Shown piece after piece: positions 51,564 through 57,055 of a stretch of 64,000 bases of DNA (its first letter is position 1; every line of letters begins with the position of its first letter). The stretch comes from an uncultured Candidatus Saccharibacteria bacterium (lineage in GTDB: Bacteria; Patescibacteriota; Minisyncoccia; Phycocordibacterales; UBA918). The stretch spans positions 499 through 64,498 of the forward strand of contig CAZTWW010000001.1 of assembly GCA_964618165.1 (NCBI GenBank), given 5' to 3'. The translations under genes were made by a program, and so were the position numbers. Under the pieces are notes generated by a model that was not told where the DNA came from, did no database searches, and saw nothing but the letters and a program-made list of their open reading frames with translations.

Positions 51564-51639
51564 GGGCCTGTAGCTCACTTGGTAGAGCGCCTCATTTGCA
51601 CTGAGGAGGCAGCGGGTTCGAATCCTGTCAGGTCCACCA
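51564..51639 (+). tRNA. tRNA-Ala (anticodon TGC)
   Basis: Cloverleaf: acceptor stem GGGCCTG/CAGGTCC with G3:U70, D-arm GCTC-ACTTGGTA-GAGC, anticodon stem CCTCA/TGAGG with loop TTTGCAC, T-arm with TTCGAAT loop, encoded CCA 3' end. Confidence 0.9.
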
Positions 51640-51646
51640 CCGTAAT

Positions 51647-51685
51647 ATAAAACACCACCATTAAGTAATGGTGGTGTTTTATATT
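51647..51685 (+). terminator. Intrinsic terminator after the tRNA
   Basis: Perfect hairpin AAAACACCACCA-ttaagtaa-TGGTGGTGTTTT followed by ATATT. A second hairpin AGCAAGCAATAAGTATTGCTTGC follows at 51687-51709. Confidence 0.8.
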
Positions 51686-51729
51686 AGCAAGCAATAAGTA
51701 TTGCTTGCGTACGGTGGTGGAAGGCGGAG

Positions 51730-52020
51730 ACATGTTTTCGAGCTACTAGCGAGAAAACGGTCGAGCCGGGGTCGAGAACACTTAGTAGATTGAGAACGCA
51801 GTGAATCAATCTACTTAGTGATTCGTGACCACATCGGCGTACTACATTTGAACAGGATGAGAACCGAGGTGCGGCGAAGCCCGCAGACGAGTTTACGAGT
51901 CGAGGACCGCACCGAGTGGGGGTCGAGCGAATGAGCTAGATTATGAGTGAAACGAAATAATCTAGCCATGAGAGTGACCGAATCGTGTTAGGTCTTAGAA
52001 ACTCGTGACCACATCGCTAC
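51730..52020. repeat. Non-coding region with two hairpin + direct-repeat units (TCGTGACCACATCG x2), candidate island junction downstream of the tRNA
   Basis: Hairpin ACTTAGTAGATTGA..TCAATCTACTTAGT + GATTCGTGACCACATCGGCG (~51780-51840). Hairpin GCTAGATTAT..ATAATCTAGC + ...AAACTCGTGACCACATCGCTAC (~51940-52020). Confidence 0.55.
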
Positions 52021-52025
52021 CAAAA

Positions 52026-52058
52026 AATAAAACAAAACCCCGATGCCAGACCGGGGTT
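52026..52058 (-). terminator. Intrinsic terminator for the minus-strand gene 52077-52598
   Basis: Minus-strand reading: AACCCCGGTCTGGCATCGGGGTT followed by TTGTTTT. Confidence 0.75.
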
Positions 52059-52076
52059 CTGCCGGTGACATCAGGG

Positions 52077-52598
52077 TTATTCCTTTTCGATGAGTGCATT
52101 CAGTCGTGAGATGTATTCCTCAAGTGCAGCTCTCGAGAGAGTTTCCACTTTCTTGTCGAGAGTGGAGTGTTGTTGCTTGATTATTTGATCAAGCTGCAGC
52201 ATGGCGTTGTTGTAGGTGGTAAGTGCCAGCCGTTCTTCTTCGTAGAATTTCCTCACCTCATCATATGTTGAGATAAGTGCCCTGATTCCGTCCCAGTTGC
52301 CCCGATATTCTGCTTCAAGCACGAGGATGAAGAGATCGAGACTAGCCCTCCGAAGCCTATCTAACGATTGATCCTGAGATCTATAGTACGCTTCTTCGGC
52401 TTCGGTAATTGCCTCCAGTCTGGCGGCTATCTCCCAGTCTGCCTTGATTTGCGAAAGACGACTCTCGTAATCCGCATGAATCTGGCGGATGGTAGTCTCA
52501 TCCGCAACAGCAGGGAAGGAGAGGCCGACTAAGACGGCGATGGCAATTAGACTCCGAAAGAACATTGTGAACTCCTGTTGTTCGTTGCTTGCACACAA
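52077..52598 (-). CDS. Secreted coiled-coil protein (173 aa), unknown
   Basis: Signal peptide MFFRSLIAIAVLVGLSFPAVA. The rest is helical and Glu/Arg/Leu-rich. This is one of only three minus-strand genes with good support. Confidence 0.65.
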   Translation of the reverse strand: MCASNEQQEFTMFFRSLIAIAVLVGLSFPAVADETTIRQIHADYESRLSQIKADWEIAARLEAITEAEEAYYRSQDQSLDRLRRASLDLFILVLEAEYRGNWDGIRALISTYDEVRKFYEEERLALTTYNNAMLQLDQIIKQQHSTLDKKVETLSRAALEEYISRLNALIEKE

Positions 52599-52675
52599 TA
52601 CGACTAATATACCGCTGTGTCAATACATTTCTATATAAAGTAAAAGGCCCGCGAACTCGTCGCAGGCCCTTCCTC

Positions 52676-52936
52676 TTAAAACGTCACCGGCTCTCTTCTG
52701 TTTGAATTGATGATGTCGATGCAGAGCACTATCTTCGGTAACGGACGTGGCTCATGTTCTGGTCCACCCCAACCGCTAGGATCAGGTCCTTTAATGACGT
52801 CGCCATCTTCGCATTCATAATCACACACCTCAAGCTCAATGCCTGCAAACGCACCTTTCGTGGTTGAGACCACGATTTCCGTTTCGCCATCAAGCCCAAG
52901 GGCAGTGATTGCTTGGAGCAAATCTTTGATTTTCAT
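52676..52936 (-). CDS. Hypothetical acidic protein (86 aa)
   Basis: Clean ORF in the intergenic space. A hairpin GGCCCGCGAACTCGTCGCAGGCCC lies downstream on the minus strand. Function unknown. Confidence 0.4.
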   Translation of the reverse strand: MKIKDLLQAITALGLDGETEIVVSTTKGAFAGIELEVCDYECEDGDVIKGPDPSGWGGPEHEPRPLPKIVLCIDIINSNRREPVTF

Positions 52937-53009
52937 GGGAACCCCGCTTTTTCCTCAGCCGTATAGTACATGCCCCAGATTGTCTGTCCAGTCTTGGTAT
53001 ACTACGAGT

Positions 53010-53402
53010 ATGACCAAGACTGAGCTTACGACTATTATCACGAGTATTCAAAAGCGTCGGGTACAGTATCAGCAACGTCTGAACGAACTCCACCGTCTTA
53101 TTCGCGAAATCGAAGGAGACACGGTATTTAAGGAACAAGCCTTTCATGAGTACCAAGCTCTTTTAACAGAGGCAACCACTGTCCATTTTGACTACACGAA
53201 GCACCTCCGCCACTACTATCCAATTGTAAAGCTCGCAAAAGACTGTCTCACCACCGATAAGGTCATCTCAGACACCCTCGCCACACTCCTCAATGAGCAC
53301 TACACGATGATTATGTCGTTTACTGAGACACACATGCGTGATGTGGAGGAATACACCGCCCTCCTTGCTGAAGGCTATGAGCTTCAGCTCGAACAGCTCT
53401 AA
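53010..53402 (+). CDS. Hypothetical helical protein (130 aa)
   Basis: I chose the ATG at 53010 because TGGTATACT lies 7 nt upstream (52995-53003). The ORF track's start at 52839 is an upstream alternative codon. Confidence 0.55.
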   Translation: MTKTELTTIITSIQKRRVQYQQRLNELHRLIREIEGDTVFKEQAFHEYQALLTEATTVHFDYTKHLRHYYPIVKLAKDCLTTDKVISDTLATLLNEHYTMIMSFTETHMRDVEEYTALLAEGYELQLEQL

Positions 53403-53432
53403 ACCCTGCACACCACGACGTTTCTCCCTACT

Positions 53433-53738
53433 ATGACACCCACCACCATCACGCTCCTCATACTGCTTGTTGTGAATATGGTCACATTCATGGTGGTTGC
53501 ACACGACAAACACAAAGCAATGAAGCGTGGTGAGGTAGAGCGTACACCTGAAGGTCTCATATTCTTTTCGGCCGCTGCCTTCGGAGCCCTTGGTGCTTAC
53601 CTCGCGATGATTATCTTCCGCCACAAGACCCGGAAGTGGTATTTTCAGATTGGGATACCGCTCCTCATCATCCAGAATATCGCCACCCTCTATTGTCTCG
53701 CGCTCCTCTGGCCGAGTGTGAGTCTTTATTTCTCATAA
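53433..53738 (+). CDS. DUF1294 family membrane protein (101 aa)
   Basis: 'AHDKHKAMKRGEVERTPEGLIFFSAAAFGALGAYLAMIIFRHKTRKWYF' matches the DUF1294 signature (DK..A....RIPE..L.....GG..GA.....FRHKT.K). Confidence 0.7.
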   Translation: MTPTTITLLILLVVNMVTFMVVAHDKHKAMKRGEVERTPEGLIFFSAAAFGALGAYLAMIIFRHKTRKWYFQIGIPLLIIQNIATLYCLALLWPSVSLYFS

Positions 53739-53748
53739 TCATATCTCT

Positions 53749-54309
53749 ATGAAAAAACTATCACGCACCGAACAAGCAACGCTCAAGAACCTCAAGCAGC
53801 AGCTCACTACCCTCGAATCAAACCTTCTGACCGCGAAGCGTAAAGAAGGTATCGACGACAACCTCACCATCAAGGTAAAGAAGAATAAAGCCAACTACAG
53901 CAAAACGAAGCGCAACGGTGCCAAGGATACAGTCGAGGGGACGTTCTTCATCCTCCTCACCGTAACGGCAAAGGCCAATACCATCTATGTACCGATCTCA
54001 ATGGCGTCCGGCAAGAAGCAGGCTGGCTTCATGTACCAGATAGAGGGGACAGACACCGGCGCTATCGGGCGAGCGAGTGTCGATAGCCGAGGCGAGGGGG
54101 TGAAGGAGGTGACTGTCGGCACCATTGTCTATGCCATGATCCCACCAAAGATGACAGCTGAATTCAGGATAAATGTCACCATCGGTGGCCGGGTCGGCCA
54201 GACGTACAACATTGTCATCAACCGTATCAACTACAAGCTCAGTCTCGACGACACCCGCTACCAGCAGTACTTGAAGCCAATTGTGTCTGATAGTGTGAAG
54301 TTTAGCTAA
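53749..54309 (+). CDS. Hypothetical protein (186 aa)
   Basis: CATAAT lies 9 nt upstream. No recognisable motif. Lys-rich N-terminus. Confidence 0.55.
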   Translation: MKKLSRTEQATLKNLKQQLTTLESNLLTAKRKEGIDDNLTIKVKKNKANYSKTKRNGAKDTVEGTFFILLTVTAKANTIYVPISMASGKKQAGFMYQIEGTDTGAIGRASVDSRGEGVKEVTVGTIVYAMIPPKMTAEFRINVTIGGRVGQTYNIVINRINYKLSLDDTRYQQYLKPIVSDSVKFS

Positions 54310-54331
54310 TCTTCTCATTCCACTACGACAG

Positions 54332-54340
54332 TGGTACTAT
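54332..54340 (+). promoter_or_regulatory. Extended -10 element TGGTACTAT 6 nt upstream of the MazG-like ATG
   Basis: A TGnTAnnAT motif. Same architecture as the other near-start -10 elements. Confidence 0.35.
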
Positions 54341-54346
54341 GGAAAT

Positions 54347-54694
54347 ATGGATTCAAATGACAGACTAACAATTCTAAGTGAGAGAATAAAGACTTTTTGT
54401 TCTGAGCGTGAGTGGTCACAATTCCATGACCCAAAAAATCTAGCTATCTCTCTACAACTTGAAGCATCTGAAGTGTTAGAGCTGTTTCAGTGGACAAAAG
54501 ATAATCAAGTAAAGTCTGGTAAAGAAGCAAGTATCTCAGAGGAGGTTGCAGACGTTTTTTACTGGTTATTAATGCTTGCTAACCACTATAATATTGATTT
54601 AGTAGAAGCATTAAACTCTAAGATGGATATAAATGAAATTAAGTATCCAGTCAATAAGTCTAAAGGAGTTTCAACAAAATATACTGACCTATGA
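54347..54694 (+). CDS. MazG-like nucleoside triphosphate pyrophosphohydrolase (115 aa)
   Basis: 'LTILSERIKTFCSEREWSQFHDPKNLAISLQLEASEVLELFQW' ... 'EEVADVFYWLLMLANHYNIDLVEAL' is the all-alpha MazG/dCTPase-like fold with its EExxE/D motifs. AT-rich coding sequence. Confidence 0.75.
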   Translation: MDSNDRLTILSERIKTFCSEREWSQFHDPKNLAISLQLEASEVLELFQWTKDNQVKSGKEASISEEVADVFYWLLMLANHYNIDLVEALNSKMDINEIKYPVNKSKGVSTKYTDL

Positions 54695-56550
54695 TTGTTT
54701 ATGAAGCTACGGCTGCAAAGTTTATAGAAGATGTTGATTCAAACAACATTATTTCCGAAATTGAGAAAGCATTTCGAAGTAAGCTAGGTCGTGGAATACC
54801 ACCAAGTGAAATCTCTGCCTACTCAAACTCTTTACCGCACATGGAAAGAGTAGTGAGAAGATCAGGTGTACCTTCTGATTGTGGTATTCTAATAGAATAT
54901 AAAATTCCTCTTACTAACTTCAGAATTGATTTTGTTATATCAGGTGAAGACGACAATGGAAACAAAAATTTCGTAATTGTTGAGTTAAAACAGTGGCAGA
55001 AAGCTGACATTGCAGAGGGTGATGGATTAGTAGAGGCGTTTACCGGCAATGCTTTAAGAACGGTGACACATCCTAGTTACCAAGCATCACGTTATAAAGA
55101 TTATATATGTGATTTTAATGAAGTGTTTTATACAGGTTCTGTAAAAGCATACTCGTGTGCTTACCTACATAACTATGAAGAAAAGAGAGTTGAACCACTT
55201 TTAGATTCACGCTATAGCAAAGTTACCGAAGAGACACCTATTTATTTCAGAGACGATCAATCAAAACTCCAGGAGTTTATAAAGAAGTATGTTAAACAGG
55301 GTAAAGGAATGGATATCCTTTACCATGTAAATAATGGGAGGATTAAACCTTCAAAAAAACTTATTGACCATGTCTCAAGCATGTTTGAAGGTAACAGCAA
55401 TTACATTCTTTTAGATGAACAAAAGGTAGCATTCGAAACAGCTAGAAAGATTGCAAATCAGCAATTAAAGAACGTTGTTATCATAAAGGGTGGTCCTGGT
55501 ACAGGGAAGTCTGTTATATCAGTAAATCTGGTTAGCGCACTACTGAAAGATAACTTAAATGCGATTTTCGTAGCGCCAAACTCGTCGTTTAGAAATGCCT
55601 TGGTGAAGCGGCTTACTCAAAACCATCCAAGGCAACGTATAAACAATATATTCAAAGGCTCGGCTTCGTTTTATGACACCGCAGAAAACGAATTCGACGT
55701 GCTCGTCGTAGACGAAGCGCATCGGCTAAAAGCAAAGGGTGCATTTATGTACAAAGGTGTTAACCAAGTACTAGATGTTATTAAATCTGCACAGACTTCA
55801 ATCTTCTTCATAGATGACAATCAGGCAGTAAGACCAGAAGATATAGGTTCTGTAGAGTCAATTAAGAAAATTGCTGAGTCTCTTGATGTAAATGTTACTG
55901 AGTTAGAGCTTTCGGCACAATTTCGCTGTGCGGGAGCTGATGGCTATCTTAACTGGCTTGATGATGTCTTACAAATTAGGGAAACAGCTAATTACGATGG
56001 TTGGGACAAAAAGAGTTTTGATTTTAGGATATGTGAAAATCCTAATGAACTTCGTGATGAAATAAATAGGAAGTCAGAAGAAGGTTTCAATAGTCGCATT
56101 TTAGCTGGTTACGCTTGGGACTGGACTCCAGCCGGAAGAGGTAATGAAAATGCAGAAGTTAATGACATTTGCATTCCTGAGTTTGATTTTAAAATGCCTT
56201 GGAACTCAAGACGAGTGGGTACAACCTGGGCCATAGAAGATGCTGGTAAAAATCAAATTGGTTGTATTCATACATCGCAAGGCTTAGAGTTTGATTATGT
56301 AGGAGTGATTGTCGGTCTCGACCTGCAATATGATCAACAGTTATCAATGTATTTAACCAAGCATGAACAATATAAAGATAAGCTTGGTAAGAAAGGCTTA
56401 AGAGATAAACCGGAAGAACTTAATAAACTTGTTCGAAATATATATAAAGTGTTAATGTCTCGTGGAATGAAAGGTTGTTATGTGTATTTCATGGATAAAG
56501 AAGTAGAAAATTACTTTAAATCTAGATTAGGAACTGTAAAAGATGTGTAA
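54691..56550 (+). CDS. DUF2075 (SLFN-like P-loop ATPase/helicase) protein with N-terminal PD-(D/E)xK nuclease-like domain (619 aa)
   Basis: ATGA overlap with the MazG-like gene. N-terminal 'FRIDFVISGEDDNGNKNFVIVELKQWQ' has a D...E-x-K arrangement. Walker A 'GGPGTGKSVISVNLV'. Walker B/DEAH-like 'VLVVDEAHRL'. 'SAQFRCAG'. 'IHTSQGLEFDYVGVIVG', a helicase motif VI-like segment. AT-rich. Confidence 0.75.
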   Translation: MIVYEATAAKFIEDVDSNNIISEIEKAFRSKLGRGIPPSEISAYSNSLPHMERVVRRSGVPSDCGILIEYKIPLTNFRIDFVISGEDDNGNKNFVIVELKQWQKADIAEGDGLVEAFTGNALRTVTHPSYQASRYKDYICDFNEVFYTGSVKAYSCAYLHNYEEKRVEPLLDSRYSKVTEETPIYFRDDQSKLQEFIKKYVKQGKGMDILYHVNNGRIKPSKKLIDHVSSMFEGNSNYILLDEQKVAFETARKIANQQLKNVVIIKGGPGTGKSVISVNLVSALLKDNLNAIFVAPNSSFRNALVKRLTQNHPRQRINNIFKGSASFYDTAENEFDVLVVDEAHRLKAKGAFMYKGVNQVLDVIKSAQTSIFFIDDNQAVRPEDIGSVESIKKIAESLDVNVTELELSAQFRCAGADGYLNWLDDVLQIRETANYDGWDKKSFDFRICENPNELRDEINRKSEEGFNSRILAGYAWDWTPAGRGNENAEVNDICIPEFDFKMPWNSRRVGTTWAIEDAGKNQIGCIHTSQGLEFDYVGVIVGLDLQYDQQLSMYLTKHEQYKDKLGKKGLRDKPEELNKLVRNIYKVLMSRGMKGCYVYFMDKEVENYFKSRLGTVKDV

Positions 56551-56590
56551 AAGCAGTTGCAAGTCCGCTCATTATGATCAATGATCAGGA

Positions 56591-56788
56591 ATGACTAAAG
56601 TAAAATATTTACGACACCAGTGTCAGCACTGTGGGTCAGAATCGAAACTTTTAGAAACAATTATTGATGATGAATTTATTTGGGATGATACATCTAAACA
56701 GTATCAACCACACCAATATACGGACTGTTTTGAGCATACTGGTAAAGAGCGTTGTGCTAGATGTCAGCAAGACTGGACTGGGGTATGA
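56591..56788 (+). CDS. Zinc-ribbon miniprotein 1 (65 aa; CxxC...CxxC)
   Basis: 'CQHCGSES...CARCQQ'. AT-rich. Lies 40 nt after the DUF2075 stop. Confidence 0.5.
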   Translation: MTKVKYLRHQCQHCGSESKLLETIIDDEFIWDDTSKQYQPHQYTDCFEHTGKERCARCQQDWTGV

Positions 56789-56973
56789 ATCAACGAATAT
56801 ATTGTTGTAAATGTAAGCTGAAGCTTGAGTATATTGTTTTACGTCAGGTTGAAGAAGTGTTTTATAAGTATGACATAGTTACTAATCAGCTCAGTGATTA
56901 TCACGGAGACGGCTCAGTTATTACGAGTGATTACAAGTGTCCATTTTGCAACACATCACAAACGCTAGATTAG
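56785..56973 (+). CDS. Zinc-ribbon miniprotein 2 (62 aa; CCKCK...CPFC)
   Basis: ATGA overlap with miniprotein 1 (ATG at 56785). 'YCCKCKLKLEY...YKCPFCNTSQ'. Confidence 0.5.
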   Translation: MNQRIYCCKCKLKLEYIVLRQVEEVFYKYDIVTNQLSDYHGDGSVITSDYKCPFCNTSQTLD

Positions 56974-57055
56974 TGTTAATCATCGAGAAATCACTTTACA
57001 ACCCCTCAATCCTTCGGTACTGTTCACGCTAGAGTGTGAGGAAGGGGAGGGTCAG

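Follow-up and report, generated by a model that had tools for sequence, protein, structure and literature searches.

A conserved, mobile gene pair of a predicted DCTPP1-type pyrophosphatase and a nuclease-helicase as a candidate defence module

The DNA analysed here, a stretch of 64,000 nucleotides from an uncultured Candidatus Saccharibacteria bacterium (the window), carries a small gene for a MazG-like protein of 115 amino acids (54347..54694, + strand) that runs into a large gene for a protein of 619 amino acids (54691..56550, + strand). Do these two genes form a functional unit and, if so, is it the anti-phage module that the original prediction saw in them? Their overlap by 4 nt was confirmed from the sequence, where the shared start and stop are read directly as ATGA (54691..54694, + strand), suggesting that the two genes are translationally coupled. 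The results described below indicate that the pair is real and that its function is probably defensive. The anti-phage assignment gains from the conservation of the pair among defence genes elsewhere, but an orthologous pair assayed earlier, SG192, gave no observed defence.

The two proteins and their predicted activities

The 115-residue protein matches PF12643 in Pfam (57.7 bits, curated cut-off 27; E = 1.4e-15), and its closest solved relatives in the PDB are DCTPP1/RS21-C6 (6sqw, 2a3q; 2e-22 over residues 16-115), identifying a MazG-like, all-alpha NTP pyrophosphatase that is more precisely a predicted DCTPP1-type dCTP pyrophosphatase. DCTPP1 is a house-cleaning enzyme (PMC7162842) with a preference for dCTP and C5-modified dCTP (PMC7162842, PMC13291643), and its cytosine pocket consists of a Trp47/Trp73 sandwich, His38 and His51 as proposed filters, Asp98 and Tyr129 (PMC13291643). 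The EXXE...EXXD metal site, the Trp sandwich and a C-terminal KYTDL are common to DCTPP1/RS21-C6 and the window protein, which also has equivalents of His51, Asp98 and Tyr129; the equivalent of His38 falls outside the aligned region. The predicted metal ligands E39 (54461-54463), E42 (54470-54472), E66 (54542-54544) and D69 (54551-54553; all + strand) are conserved in 100% of 70 paired homologues, and the pocket residues F17, W23, F26, H27, W49 and Y100, which correspond to DCTPP1 F41, W47, F50, H51, W73 and Y129 (DCTPP1 residues per PMC13291643), in 93-100% of the same set. Because the metal-binding residues and the alignable cytosine-pocket residues are intact, the protein is likely to be catalytically active and not a dead sensor; its predicted substrate, dCTP and/or C5-modified dCTP, follows from pocket conservation alone. 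DCTPP1 itself, unlike the window protein, serves a housekeeping function in eukaryotes and is not tied to a fixed partner.

The 619-residue protein has more than 8000 homologues, the best of which (58-78% identity) belong to CPR bacteria. Its predicted structure (pLDDT 77.7 at full length) finds SLFN11, Dna2, IGHMBP2, RecD2, Upf1 and Dda as best Foldseek matches. The N-terminal nuclease suspected originally was borne out: a PD-(D/E)xK domain spanning approximately residues 1-160 (54691..55170, + strand) has an endonuclease-like fold and the D...(D/E)xK arrangement of that superfamily, with the motif residues E69, D80, E98-x-K100 and Q131-xxx-Y135 (54895-55095, + strand) invariant among homologues. 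So was the proposed DUF2075/Schlafen-group-3 ATPase, an SF1B helicase core at residues 260-602 (55468..56496, + strand) that matches PF09848 from the first to the last of its 354 profile positions (308.6 bits, cut-off 24; 8.7e-92) and contains an invariant Walker A (GGPGTGKS with lysine K273, 55489-55512, + strand) and an invariant Walker B (DEAH, 55711-55722, + strand). A PADLOC run, which the original prediction had called for, was less decisive: the MazG-like protein matches nothing there and no model spans either protein in full, but the Nhi and AbiO profiles match residues 218-413 of the 619 (1e-16 and 1.5e-17, respectively).

Characterised relatives and an earlier assay

Nhi (SERP2475 of Staphylococcus epidermidis; Bari et al. 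2022), whose mechanism and architecture have been described (bioRxiv 10.1101/776245), and AbiO resemble the large protein in joining an N-terminal PD-(D/E)xK nuclease to a DUF2075-overlapping SF1B helicase within a single polypeptide, and Nhi has the structural neighbours Dda, Upf1 and DNA2 in common with it. In contrast with the window protein, Nhi has a C-terminal glyoxalase-like domain and acts as a single gene, with no pyrophosphatase partner; the PADLOC matches to both families are moreover restricted to the segment given above. The Nhi-like protein SG141 of Bacillus cereus FSL H8-0482, verified by Millman et al. 2022, likewise has an N-terminal nuclease followed by DUF2075, and its nuclease motif pattern, 'EY...R.D...IE.K', resembles that of the window protein, but identity is 19% over 244 residues (pairwise E = 0.002), covering the linker and the N-lobe of the ATPase only, and SG141 was validated as a single gene, for which a pyrophosphatase partner was not reported. 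The kinship to Nhi-like effectors claimed at the outset thus holds for architecture, which the large protein has in common with validated Nhi/AbiO-type proteins, and fails for family membership.

Systems that deplete nucleotides through a dCTP deaminase or a dGTPase reportedly act in defence (Tal et al. 2022). These, and KomB of the Kongming system, resemble the window pair in placing a nucleotide-metabolising enzyme within a defence locus, but they employ deaminase, HD or HAM1 folds whereas the window enzyme is an all-alpha MazG. In Kongming, a nucleotide-sensing, pyrophosphatase-like KomB (PMC13434031) is a catalytically dead sensor whose partner is an NADase, in contrast with the fully conserved catalytic residues of the window family and its nuclease-helicase partner. 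A KomB-like sensor role for the MazG protein was rejected as the leading idea on the strength of that conservation.

The original prediction also held that the pairing had not been described as a named system. This needs correction. Our full-text literature searches returned no paper joining DUF2075 with MazG, the only record being an entry in a supplementary table, as 'pyrophosphatase', but the pairing has been considered earlier, and assayed. Among 45 candidates picked by defence-island enrichment, Millman et al. 2022 independently included one listed as 'Pyrophosphatase', which the main text neither names nor describes (bioRxiv 10.1101/2022.05.11.491447). The SG192 construct, from Bacillus firmus LK28, was assayed under its native promoter in E. 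coli and B. subtilis with 26 phages and gave no observed defence, while cloning of SG193, from B. thuringiensis Lr3/2, failed (bioRxiv 10.1101/2022.05.11.491447, Table S2). Both SG192 genes are orthologous to those of the window and lie in identical order; the DUF2075 proteins are 42% identical over residues 1-395 (E = 1e-110) and the pyrophosphatases 47% identical (E = 3e-28), the sources differing in that SG192 comes from a Firmicute and the window copy from a CPR-like metagenomic genome. SG193 differs from the window pair, at 22% identity and with the gene order reversed. SG192 is the only orthologous pair ever assayed and, with no defence seen, a defence role is unproven. The negative result would be explicable by a 26-phage panel lacking suitable targets or by inadequate expression.

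Linkage, mobility and genomic surroundings of the pair

Co-occurrence of the two genes in other genomes, one of the checks proposed originally, was found in 71 of 82 informative relatives (39-78% identity), which carry a MazG-like gene within approximately 1 kb. A single-protein search of genome contigs had yielded 6 loci only, and the productive source was an alignment-based metagenome scan. MazG lies immediately upstream at 61 of the 82 loci, upstream with a gap at 7 and downstream at 3; of these 61 adjacent pairs, 19 have by inference the −4 overlap seen in the window and the remainder have gaps of 0-71 nt. The other relatives, approximately 13%, are solo nuclease-helicases from which MazG is absent, and the pyrophosphatase is for this reason regarded as a helpful but not obligatory partner. 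Paired copies occur in CPR bacteria, Firmicutes, Bacteroidota, haloarchaea and phages. The association also holds in reverse: among plasmid records listed for both proteins, 24 of 31 have the two matches within approximately 1.1 kb. The two proteins co-evolve (Mantel r = 0.49, a value reached in 0 of 2000 permutations). Additional pairs were found on a Priestia plasmid, on a haloarchaeal plasmid, in a Microcystis phage record, on two viral contigs and in three CPR genomes. A copy in a culturable host is that of Priestia aryabhattai plasmid NZ_CP083270.1. The two genes are thus a co-inherited, co-evolving and horizontally mobile unit. That they are functionally unrelated and adjacent in the window by accident would draw on nothing more than the existence of solo versions; linkage of 87% at such divergence, across several phyla and both prokaryotic domains, together with the co-evolution and the reverse association on plasmids, effectively refutes this reading.

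The linkage data also bear on the possibility that the genes are a self-restraining abortive-infection pair, in which a toxic nuclease-helicase is held in check by the pyrophosphatase as its safety or regulator. By keeping the concentration of a nucleotide (dCTP, a modified dNTP or another NTP) low, the pyrophosphatase would prevent the effector from being activated or fuelled, until a phage altered the pool or the pyrophosphatase was inhibited and the effector was set free. An upstream MazG gene with overlapping stop and start is what many antitoxin-toxin pairs look like, one Nhi homologue is toxic on induction (bioRxiv 10.1101/776245), nucleotide-sensing pyrophosphatase-like partners such as KomB provide a precedent (PMC13434031), and one of the two constructs of Millman et al., SG193, could not be cloned. 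Cloning failure, however, has many trivial explanations, MazG is also found downstream or parted from the large gene by another gene, and the solo nuclease-helicases have no obvious replacement partner, which is unexpected if the effector is lethal when unguarded. We consider this arrangement unlikely.

Within the window, the pair occupies a segment of 2,696 bp (54311..57006, no strand assigned) of low GC content (approximately 0.33-0.40 vs 0.49-0.55 in the flanks), which also contains two small ORFs. Alternative alleles of the site lie in the sibling assemblies JACCEA010318640.1 and JACCEB010487823.1. One sibling contig (L117) agrees with the window at 99.5% through 54310 and diverges beyond, and sibling contig L115 matches from 57007 only, the match being preceded by a DNA methylase fragment; an N6/N4 methylase occupies the window site in a sibling contig. 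The site is therefore a strain-variable hotspot and not fixed core synteny. Direct, att-like repeats flanking the low-GC block were looked for and none were found; promoter and terminator scans gave no more hits than shuffled sequence would lead one to expect, and Pfam, PADLOC and NCBIfam profiles revealed no recognisable defence gene among the immediate neighbours. The small ORFs are both Cys-rich: one of 65 residues with a CxxC...CxxC pattern (56591..56788, + strand), which has zero matches in Pfam, PADLOC and NCBIfam, and one of 62 residues as called (56785..56973, + strand), or 70 if translation starts at 56761. Both were rejected as parts of the module, since the contigs in which they recur all come from the same organism.

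The surroundings of relatives are richer. A Priestia locus has as neighbours an ABC-3C system, a type I R-M system, a restriction endonuclease and a DUF3578 gene. At 8 loci the pair adjoins a PLD-helicase-DUF3427 gene (type IV, 4.6e-119), and HNH genes, GmrSD_N, NERD, AbiEi and Fic are further recurrent neighbours. DUF2075 NTPases, some fused to PD-(D/E)xK or GIY-YIG domains, are known beside DUF3427-type modification-dependent restriction endonucleases (MDREs) of the McaZI group (Lutz et al. 2019, PMC6765204), and the 8 loci conform to this arrangement; the pyrophosphatase partner is unmentioned in that work, and the window copy, by contrast, has no MDRE neighbour. Relatives thus sit in defence islands, where the neighbours are often modification-dependent nucleases. 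The original prediction had counted conserved core synteny free of defence neighbours against itself, and neither the strain-variable segment in the window nor the islands in relatives are of that kind.

This setting is pertinent to a role outside immunity, in genome maintenance, where sanitation of the dNTP pool (modified or excess dCTP) would be coupled to a nuclease-helicase for fork processing or repair, SOS-coupled in the S24-fused forms described below and mobile only as a useful accessory repair function. DCTPP1 has a house-cleaning role of this sort (PMC7162842); the structural neighbours Dna2, RecD2 and SLFN11 work at replication forks; the S24 domain suggests an involvement of RecA and DNA damage; MutT/NUDIX genes lie near the pair in 3 loci and an AddB-like helicase-nuclease adjoins it in one Saccharibacteria genome; and SG192 gave no observed defence. 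Against this, the pair is patchily distributed across the phylogeny, anomalous in GC and present or absent at the level of strains, it is carried by phages and plasmids, and restriction, toxin-antitoxin and Abi genes, not repair operons, dominate its neighbourhood, so that we judge a maintenance role distinctly unlikely.

Alternatively, the pair could be cargo that serves mobile elements rather than their hosts, in superinfection exclusion, inter-element competition or phage counter-defence; in the last form, MazG would remove a host signalling or defence nucleotide while the helicase-nuclease attacks competitor or host DNA. One of the two viral contigs carries terminase and portal genes, the Microcystis record is that of a phage, a P4 cII-like gene and Fic/RhuM genes lie near the pair in one Parcubacteria genome, and phage-encoded MazG proteins are frequent among the papers retrieved by literature search. 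Yet 12 of 2.9 million viral contigs matched, just 2 of these 12 being full-length close relatives, and most copies are chromosomal or megaplasmid-borne. Cargo of this kind, which overlaps with defence instead of excluding it, strikes us as quite improbable.

A proposed mechanism and variants of the module

We consider it about an even call that the pair is a functional conflict or defence module of the Nhi-type kind, in which a nuclease-helicase works with a nucleotide-pool enzyme; its target would most probably be phages or mobile elements. The pair is then an unvalidated variation on the Nhi-like nuclease-helicase defence theme, extended by a nucleotide-pool enzyme of its own. The helicase would load onto foreign DNA that is replicating or damaged, and the fused nuclease would degrade it, as reported for Nhi (bioRxiv 10.1101/776245). 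The pyrophosphatase would hydrolyse dCTP and/or C5-modified dCTP (5-methyl-dCTP, 5-hydroxymethyl-dCTP and similar nucleotides), the loss of which may starve replication of the invader or block synthesis of modified, nuclease-resistant DNA, thereby widening or potentiating the reach of the nuclease. The mechanism involving modified dCTP, taken alone, is rather doubtful, and given the solo relatives the mechanistic link between the two genes could be a loose one.

Linkage to MazG persists in variants of the large protein. In some homologues the nuclease domain is apparently swapped for GIY-YIG (weak Pfam matches), and others, of approximately 760 residues, have an added C-terminal LexA-like S24 peptidase domain in which 36 of 37 variants retain the Ser/Lys dyad; E. 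coli LexA served solely as a landmark for locating the Ser and Lys columns. An N-terminal position for the PF00717 domain of these homologues was rejected, Pfam coordinates placing it at the C-terminus. Fusion to this LexA/UmuD-like domain suggests that activation of the long variants is coupled to RecA-ssDNA filaments. The module can thus be defined as a two-gene core with S24-fused, GIY-YIG-swapped and MDRE-linked variants, and its predicted catalytic residues provide targets for mutagenesis.

A stronger version of the defence reading, which we regard as fairly unlikely, takes the pair to be a widespread immune module of Bacteria, Archaea, CPR and phages specialised against invaders with modified cytosine, the DCTPP1-like enzyme destroying C5-modified dCTP or dCTP. 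With that pool gone, replication would either stall or produce DNA lacking the modification, to be degraded by the fused nuclease-helicase, often with the help of neighbouring modification-dependent nucleases, and the long forms would add RecA-triggered S24 autocleavage. Phages with modified cytosine also offer a possible reason for a missed phenotype in the original panel, and the evidence as a whole makes a testable proposal out of a negative result forgotten in a supplementary table. If functional, the pair would represent a new logic of immunity, with a DCTPP1-type sanitiser of the nucleotide pool permanently teamed with an Nhi-type nuclease-helicase, and CPR/Patescibacteria, which have few recognised defences, would gain one of their most conserved defence candidates. 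If not defensive, it is still a very widely transferred and strongly conserved gene pair.

Bacterial Schlafen defence, whose proteins have an N-terminal Slfn tRNase domain (Perez Taboada et al. 2026), was considered as an identity for the large protein and rejected, since Pfam gave no match to the Slfn-core (AlbA_2-type) RNase; the likeness is confined to the group-3 helicase domain. Each component has a counterpart in eukaryotes, namely DCTPP1 and the SLFN group-3 helicase, so that on the stronger, fairly unlikely reading above the module could also record that these two guardians of the eukaryotic genome arose in prokaryotes.

The gene pair and its encoded proteins

The MazG-like gene (54347-54694, + strand, 115 aa) is followed by a nuclease-helicase gene (54691-56550, + strand, 619 aa) whose ATG overlaps the stop codon of the first at the junction ...GAC CTA TGA, a 4-nt ATGA overlap. 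These ORF positions and the junction sequence bear out the original prediction, in layout and coordinates alike, and its domain calls agree with Pfam: the small protein scores 57.7 bits (E = 1.4e-15) with the MazG-like family PF12643, whose cut-off is 27, and aa 260-602 of the large protein match PF09848, SLFN-g3_helicase/DUF2075 (8.7e-92).

The solved structures nearest to the small protein are those of mammalian DCTPP1/RS21-C6 (6sqw, 2a3q; E = 2e-22), in an alignment that runs from aa 16 to aa 115 and takes in the C-terminal KYTDL; second is an archaeal pyrophosphatase (4qgp, 5e-20). The metal-binding residues E39, E42, E66 and D69 are 100% conserved in 70 homologues from paired loci. The DCTPP1 pocket consists of a Trp47/Trp73 sandwich, Phe41, Phe50, His51 as a cytosine-N3 filter, Asp98 at the deoxyribose and Tyr129 at the alpha-phosphate (PMC13291643), and DCTPP1 has high affinity for dCTP and C5-modified dCTP (PMC7162842). 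The pocket equivalents in the small protein are F17, W23, F26, H27, W49, D69 and Y100, 93-100% conserved, while the counterpart of DCTPP1 His38 falls outside the aligned region. From these residues, we infer that the small protein works as a pyrophosphatase and that its pocket is of the dCTP type. Each half of the module has a eukaryotic counterpart: the best solved match of the small protein is mammalian DCTPP1 and not a prokaryotic MazG structure, and its partner shares a helicase domain with eukaryotic Schlafens.

Conservation and company of the pair

A scan of reference genomes found a MazG-like ORF directly upstream of the large gene in all five complete loci (two Saccharibacteria, a Paceibacterota, a WWE3 and a 'Pseudomonadales' bin). 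Linkage was counted over these five and 80 full-length metagenome relatives (39-76% identity), 82 loci being informative. MazG lies immediately upstream on the same strand in 61 of the 82, with 19 sharing the -4 overlap; it is upstream behind one small intervening gene in seven and downstream of the large gene in three, and the large gene is truly solo in 11 (13%). Co-occurrence in other genomes, named as a check in the original prediction, is thus found at an overall linkage of 87%; a few near-duplicate loci among those counted (e.g. L073/L074, L050/L051) leave the picture unchanged. The association also holds in the reverse direction, from the MazG-like protein on plasmids: 98 plasmid records (74 Bacillus) were found with it and 107 (69 Bacillus) with the large protein, and in 24 of the 31 records common to both listings the two matches lie within about 1.1 kb. 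Pairwise distances co-vary between the two proteins (Mantel r = 0.49; 0 of 2000 permutations attain the observed value). The two genes are a real, widespread and strongly conserved two-gene module. Chance adjacency is excluded.

The pair occurs on plasmids of Priestia aryabhattai (53% identity) and Halalkalicoccus jeotgali (40%), in a Microcystis phage record (40%), on two viral contigs, one with terminase and Mu-type portal genes, and, on contigs of 0.3-1.6 Mb, in three CPR (Patescibacteria) genomes; a Methanosphaera plasmid holds a solo copy. In one rival reading, the pair may be cargo serving mobile elements. The 490 ORFs within 4 kb of the pair were clustered across loci. A PLD-ResIII-helicase-DUF3427 gene, matching PADLOC type IV methyl-directed restriction (4.6e-119), is present in eight loci, in most of them right after the pair; a small HNH gene abuts the pair in five, NERD and GmrSD_N/DUF262 genes neighbour it in four each and NUDIX in three, with other HNH genes, AbiEi and Fic also recurrent. 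DUF2075 NTPases adjoining DUF3427-type modification-dependent enzymes were noted by Lutz et al. 2019 (PMC6765204). The frequent third gene beside the pair encodes an HNH, DUF3578 (McrB-N-like) or PLD-helicase-DUF3427 protein. On the Priestia plasmid, the pair sits amid an ABC-three-component system, a restriction endonuclease, MutT, a DUF3578 gene and a type I R-M system; there (NZ_CP083270.1, L093:6548-7941) the DUF3578 gene, itself a weak match to type IV restriction, shares 4 nt with the start of the pyrophosphatase gene and so forms a three-gene operon, with MutT just upstream. Neighbours in CPR genomes are TA modules, an AAA_15/23 ATPase with DUF2130 and HNH, and an M78 peptidase with Beta_protein, P4 cII and Fic/RhuM. 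The catalytic machinery of both proteins is intact; the two are inherited together, co-evolve, and move on mobile DNA in the company of defence genes.

Variants, known systems and proposed action

In about a quarter of the large-protein relatives, the C-terminus is extended by an S24 (LexA/UmuD-like) peptidase domain (e.g. aa 638-747 of one homologue, P0034, 1.4e-20; loci L035:5001-7370, L076:5001-7490 and L122:8001-10277), and MazG is still found upstream of these. The G-x-S-M serine and the lysine, aligned with LexA S119/K156 in columns located with the E. coli LexA sequence as a landmark, are retained in 36 of 37 variants. The fusion suggests coupling to RecA-ssDNA filaments, i.e. replication stress or damage, and the retained Ser/Lys dyad and MazG pairing would mean that a defence-like helicase-nuclease cleaves itself in a RecA*-coupled manner. 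On B. cereus-group megaplasmids and some viral contigs, the MazG-linked DUF2075 protein has a different N-terminus with weak Pfam matches to GIY-YIG (about 20-22 bits; L099:3833-5512 on a B. cereus C1L plasmid, L103:3457-5040 on a viral contig). MazG at these loci is 47-49% identical to the window's, whereas the helicase partner is only about 25-31% identical; the MazG partnership appears to outlast a swap of the nuclease domain from PD-(D/E)xK to GIY-YIG-like. A more distant DUF2075 protein on B. thuringiensis pKK1 (L098:2178-5767) has, upstream of it, both an all-alpha NTP pyrophosphatase of another kind (PRA-PH type, PF01503) and an HNH endonuclease; DUF2075 loci would thus have taken up all-alpha pyrophosphatases on more than one occasion.

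Nhi (S. epidermidis SERP2475), whose defence role has been validated, acts as a single gene and combines a PD-(D/E)xK nuclease with a DUF2075-overlapping SF1B helicase; immunity requires both activities, and Nhi limits phage DNA accumulation (bioRxiv 10.1101/776245). Millman et al. 2022 (bioRxiv 10.1101/2022.05.11.491447) validated an 'Nhi-like' protein of the same architecture, unrelated in sequence. The comparison with Nhi-like fusions drawn in the original prediction holds for the nuclease-helicase architecture rather than for the sequence: PADLOC profiles for Nhi and AbiO cover only aa 218-413 of the large protein, and its identity to the verified Nhi-like protein is 19% (pairwise E = 0.002), which places it by sequence outside the Nhi family and probably outside the Nhi-like one.

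The pairing itself had already been proposed: Millman Table S2 lists it as the candidate 'Pyrophosphatase'. Candidates there were picked by defence-island enrichment, cloned under their own promoters and exposed to a panel of 26 phages. SG192 (B. firmus LK28; 98-aa pyrophosphatase and 643-aa DUF2075 protein), 47% (E = 3e-28) and 42% (E = 1e-110) identical to the window proteins, is marked x, no defence seen, under 'observed defense'; SG193 (B. thuringiensis; DUF2075 and 108-aa pyrophosphatase) is marked 'Cloning failed', and its DUF2075 protein is a distant cousin (22% identity). By the authors' own caution, a system left unverified could nonetheless be defensive. In our literature search, the pairing turned up neither under a system name nor with a mechanism or any later work, and the module definition given here exceeds any found in that search. 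The pair is not categorically new, since others had singled it out and assayed it once with a negative outcome; we class it as a variant, so far unvalidated, of nuclease-helicase defence of the Nhi type that has a DCTPP1-like protein as its dedicated partner.

Specific testable predictions can now be attached. By analogy with Nhi, the helicase of the large protein would load onto replicating or damaged foreign DNA, which the fused nuclease would then degrade. The DCTPP1-type enzyme would lower dCTP and/or C5-modified dCTP, slowing invader replication or preventing synthesis of modified, nuclease-resistant DNA; in S24-fused forms, activation would be coupled to RecA. That modification-dependent nucleases are often found next to the pair would agree with cytosine-modified invaders as its main targets, although the case for this is circumstantial. 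In rival readings, MazG may be the safety or regulator of an abortive-infection pair, or the pair may be a non-immune repair and pool-sanitation module. The main counter-evidence to defence is the negative SG192 assay together with the solo copies; the anti-phage interpretation is supported in part, by unit conservation and defence-gene company, and weakened by that assay.

The variable site in the window

GC is 0.33-0.40 across about 54300-57000, against 0.49-0.55 on either flank. One sibling contig (L117) is 99.5% identical to the window through 54310 and then diverges, its last 86 nt holding a gene start that weakly resembles ADP-ribosylglycohydrolase (1.9e-4); another (L115) matches only from 57007, after 267 nt with the frameshifted end of an N6/N4 DNA methylase (4.6e-27). 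Because the siblings diverge exactly at 54310/54311 and 57006/57007, with other genes beyond, the segment 54311-57006 is a strain-variable, cargo-swapping hotspot. Flanking repeats were searched for and none found, and Pfam, PADLOC and NCBIfam profiles detected no recognisable defence genes among the pair's immediate neighbours in the window.

Besides the pair, the segment holds, just downstream within the low-GC stretch, two small Cys-rich + strand ORFs (56591-56788 and 56785-56973) that overlap by 4 nt and each have two zinc-ribbon-like CxxC pairs; they are without family matches, and their homologues recur only in the same organism. The segment begins about 2.7 kb downstream of a tRNA-Ala(TGC) gene (51564-51639, + strand). 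The intervening 51640-54310 has normal GC and contains several small function-unassigned ORFs and a DUF1294 membrane protein (53433-53738); the strand of an ORF at 53749-54318 differs between gene callers.
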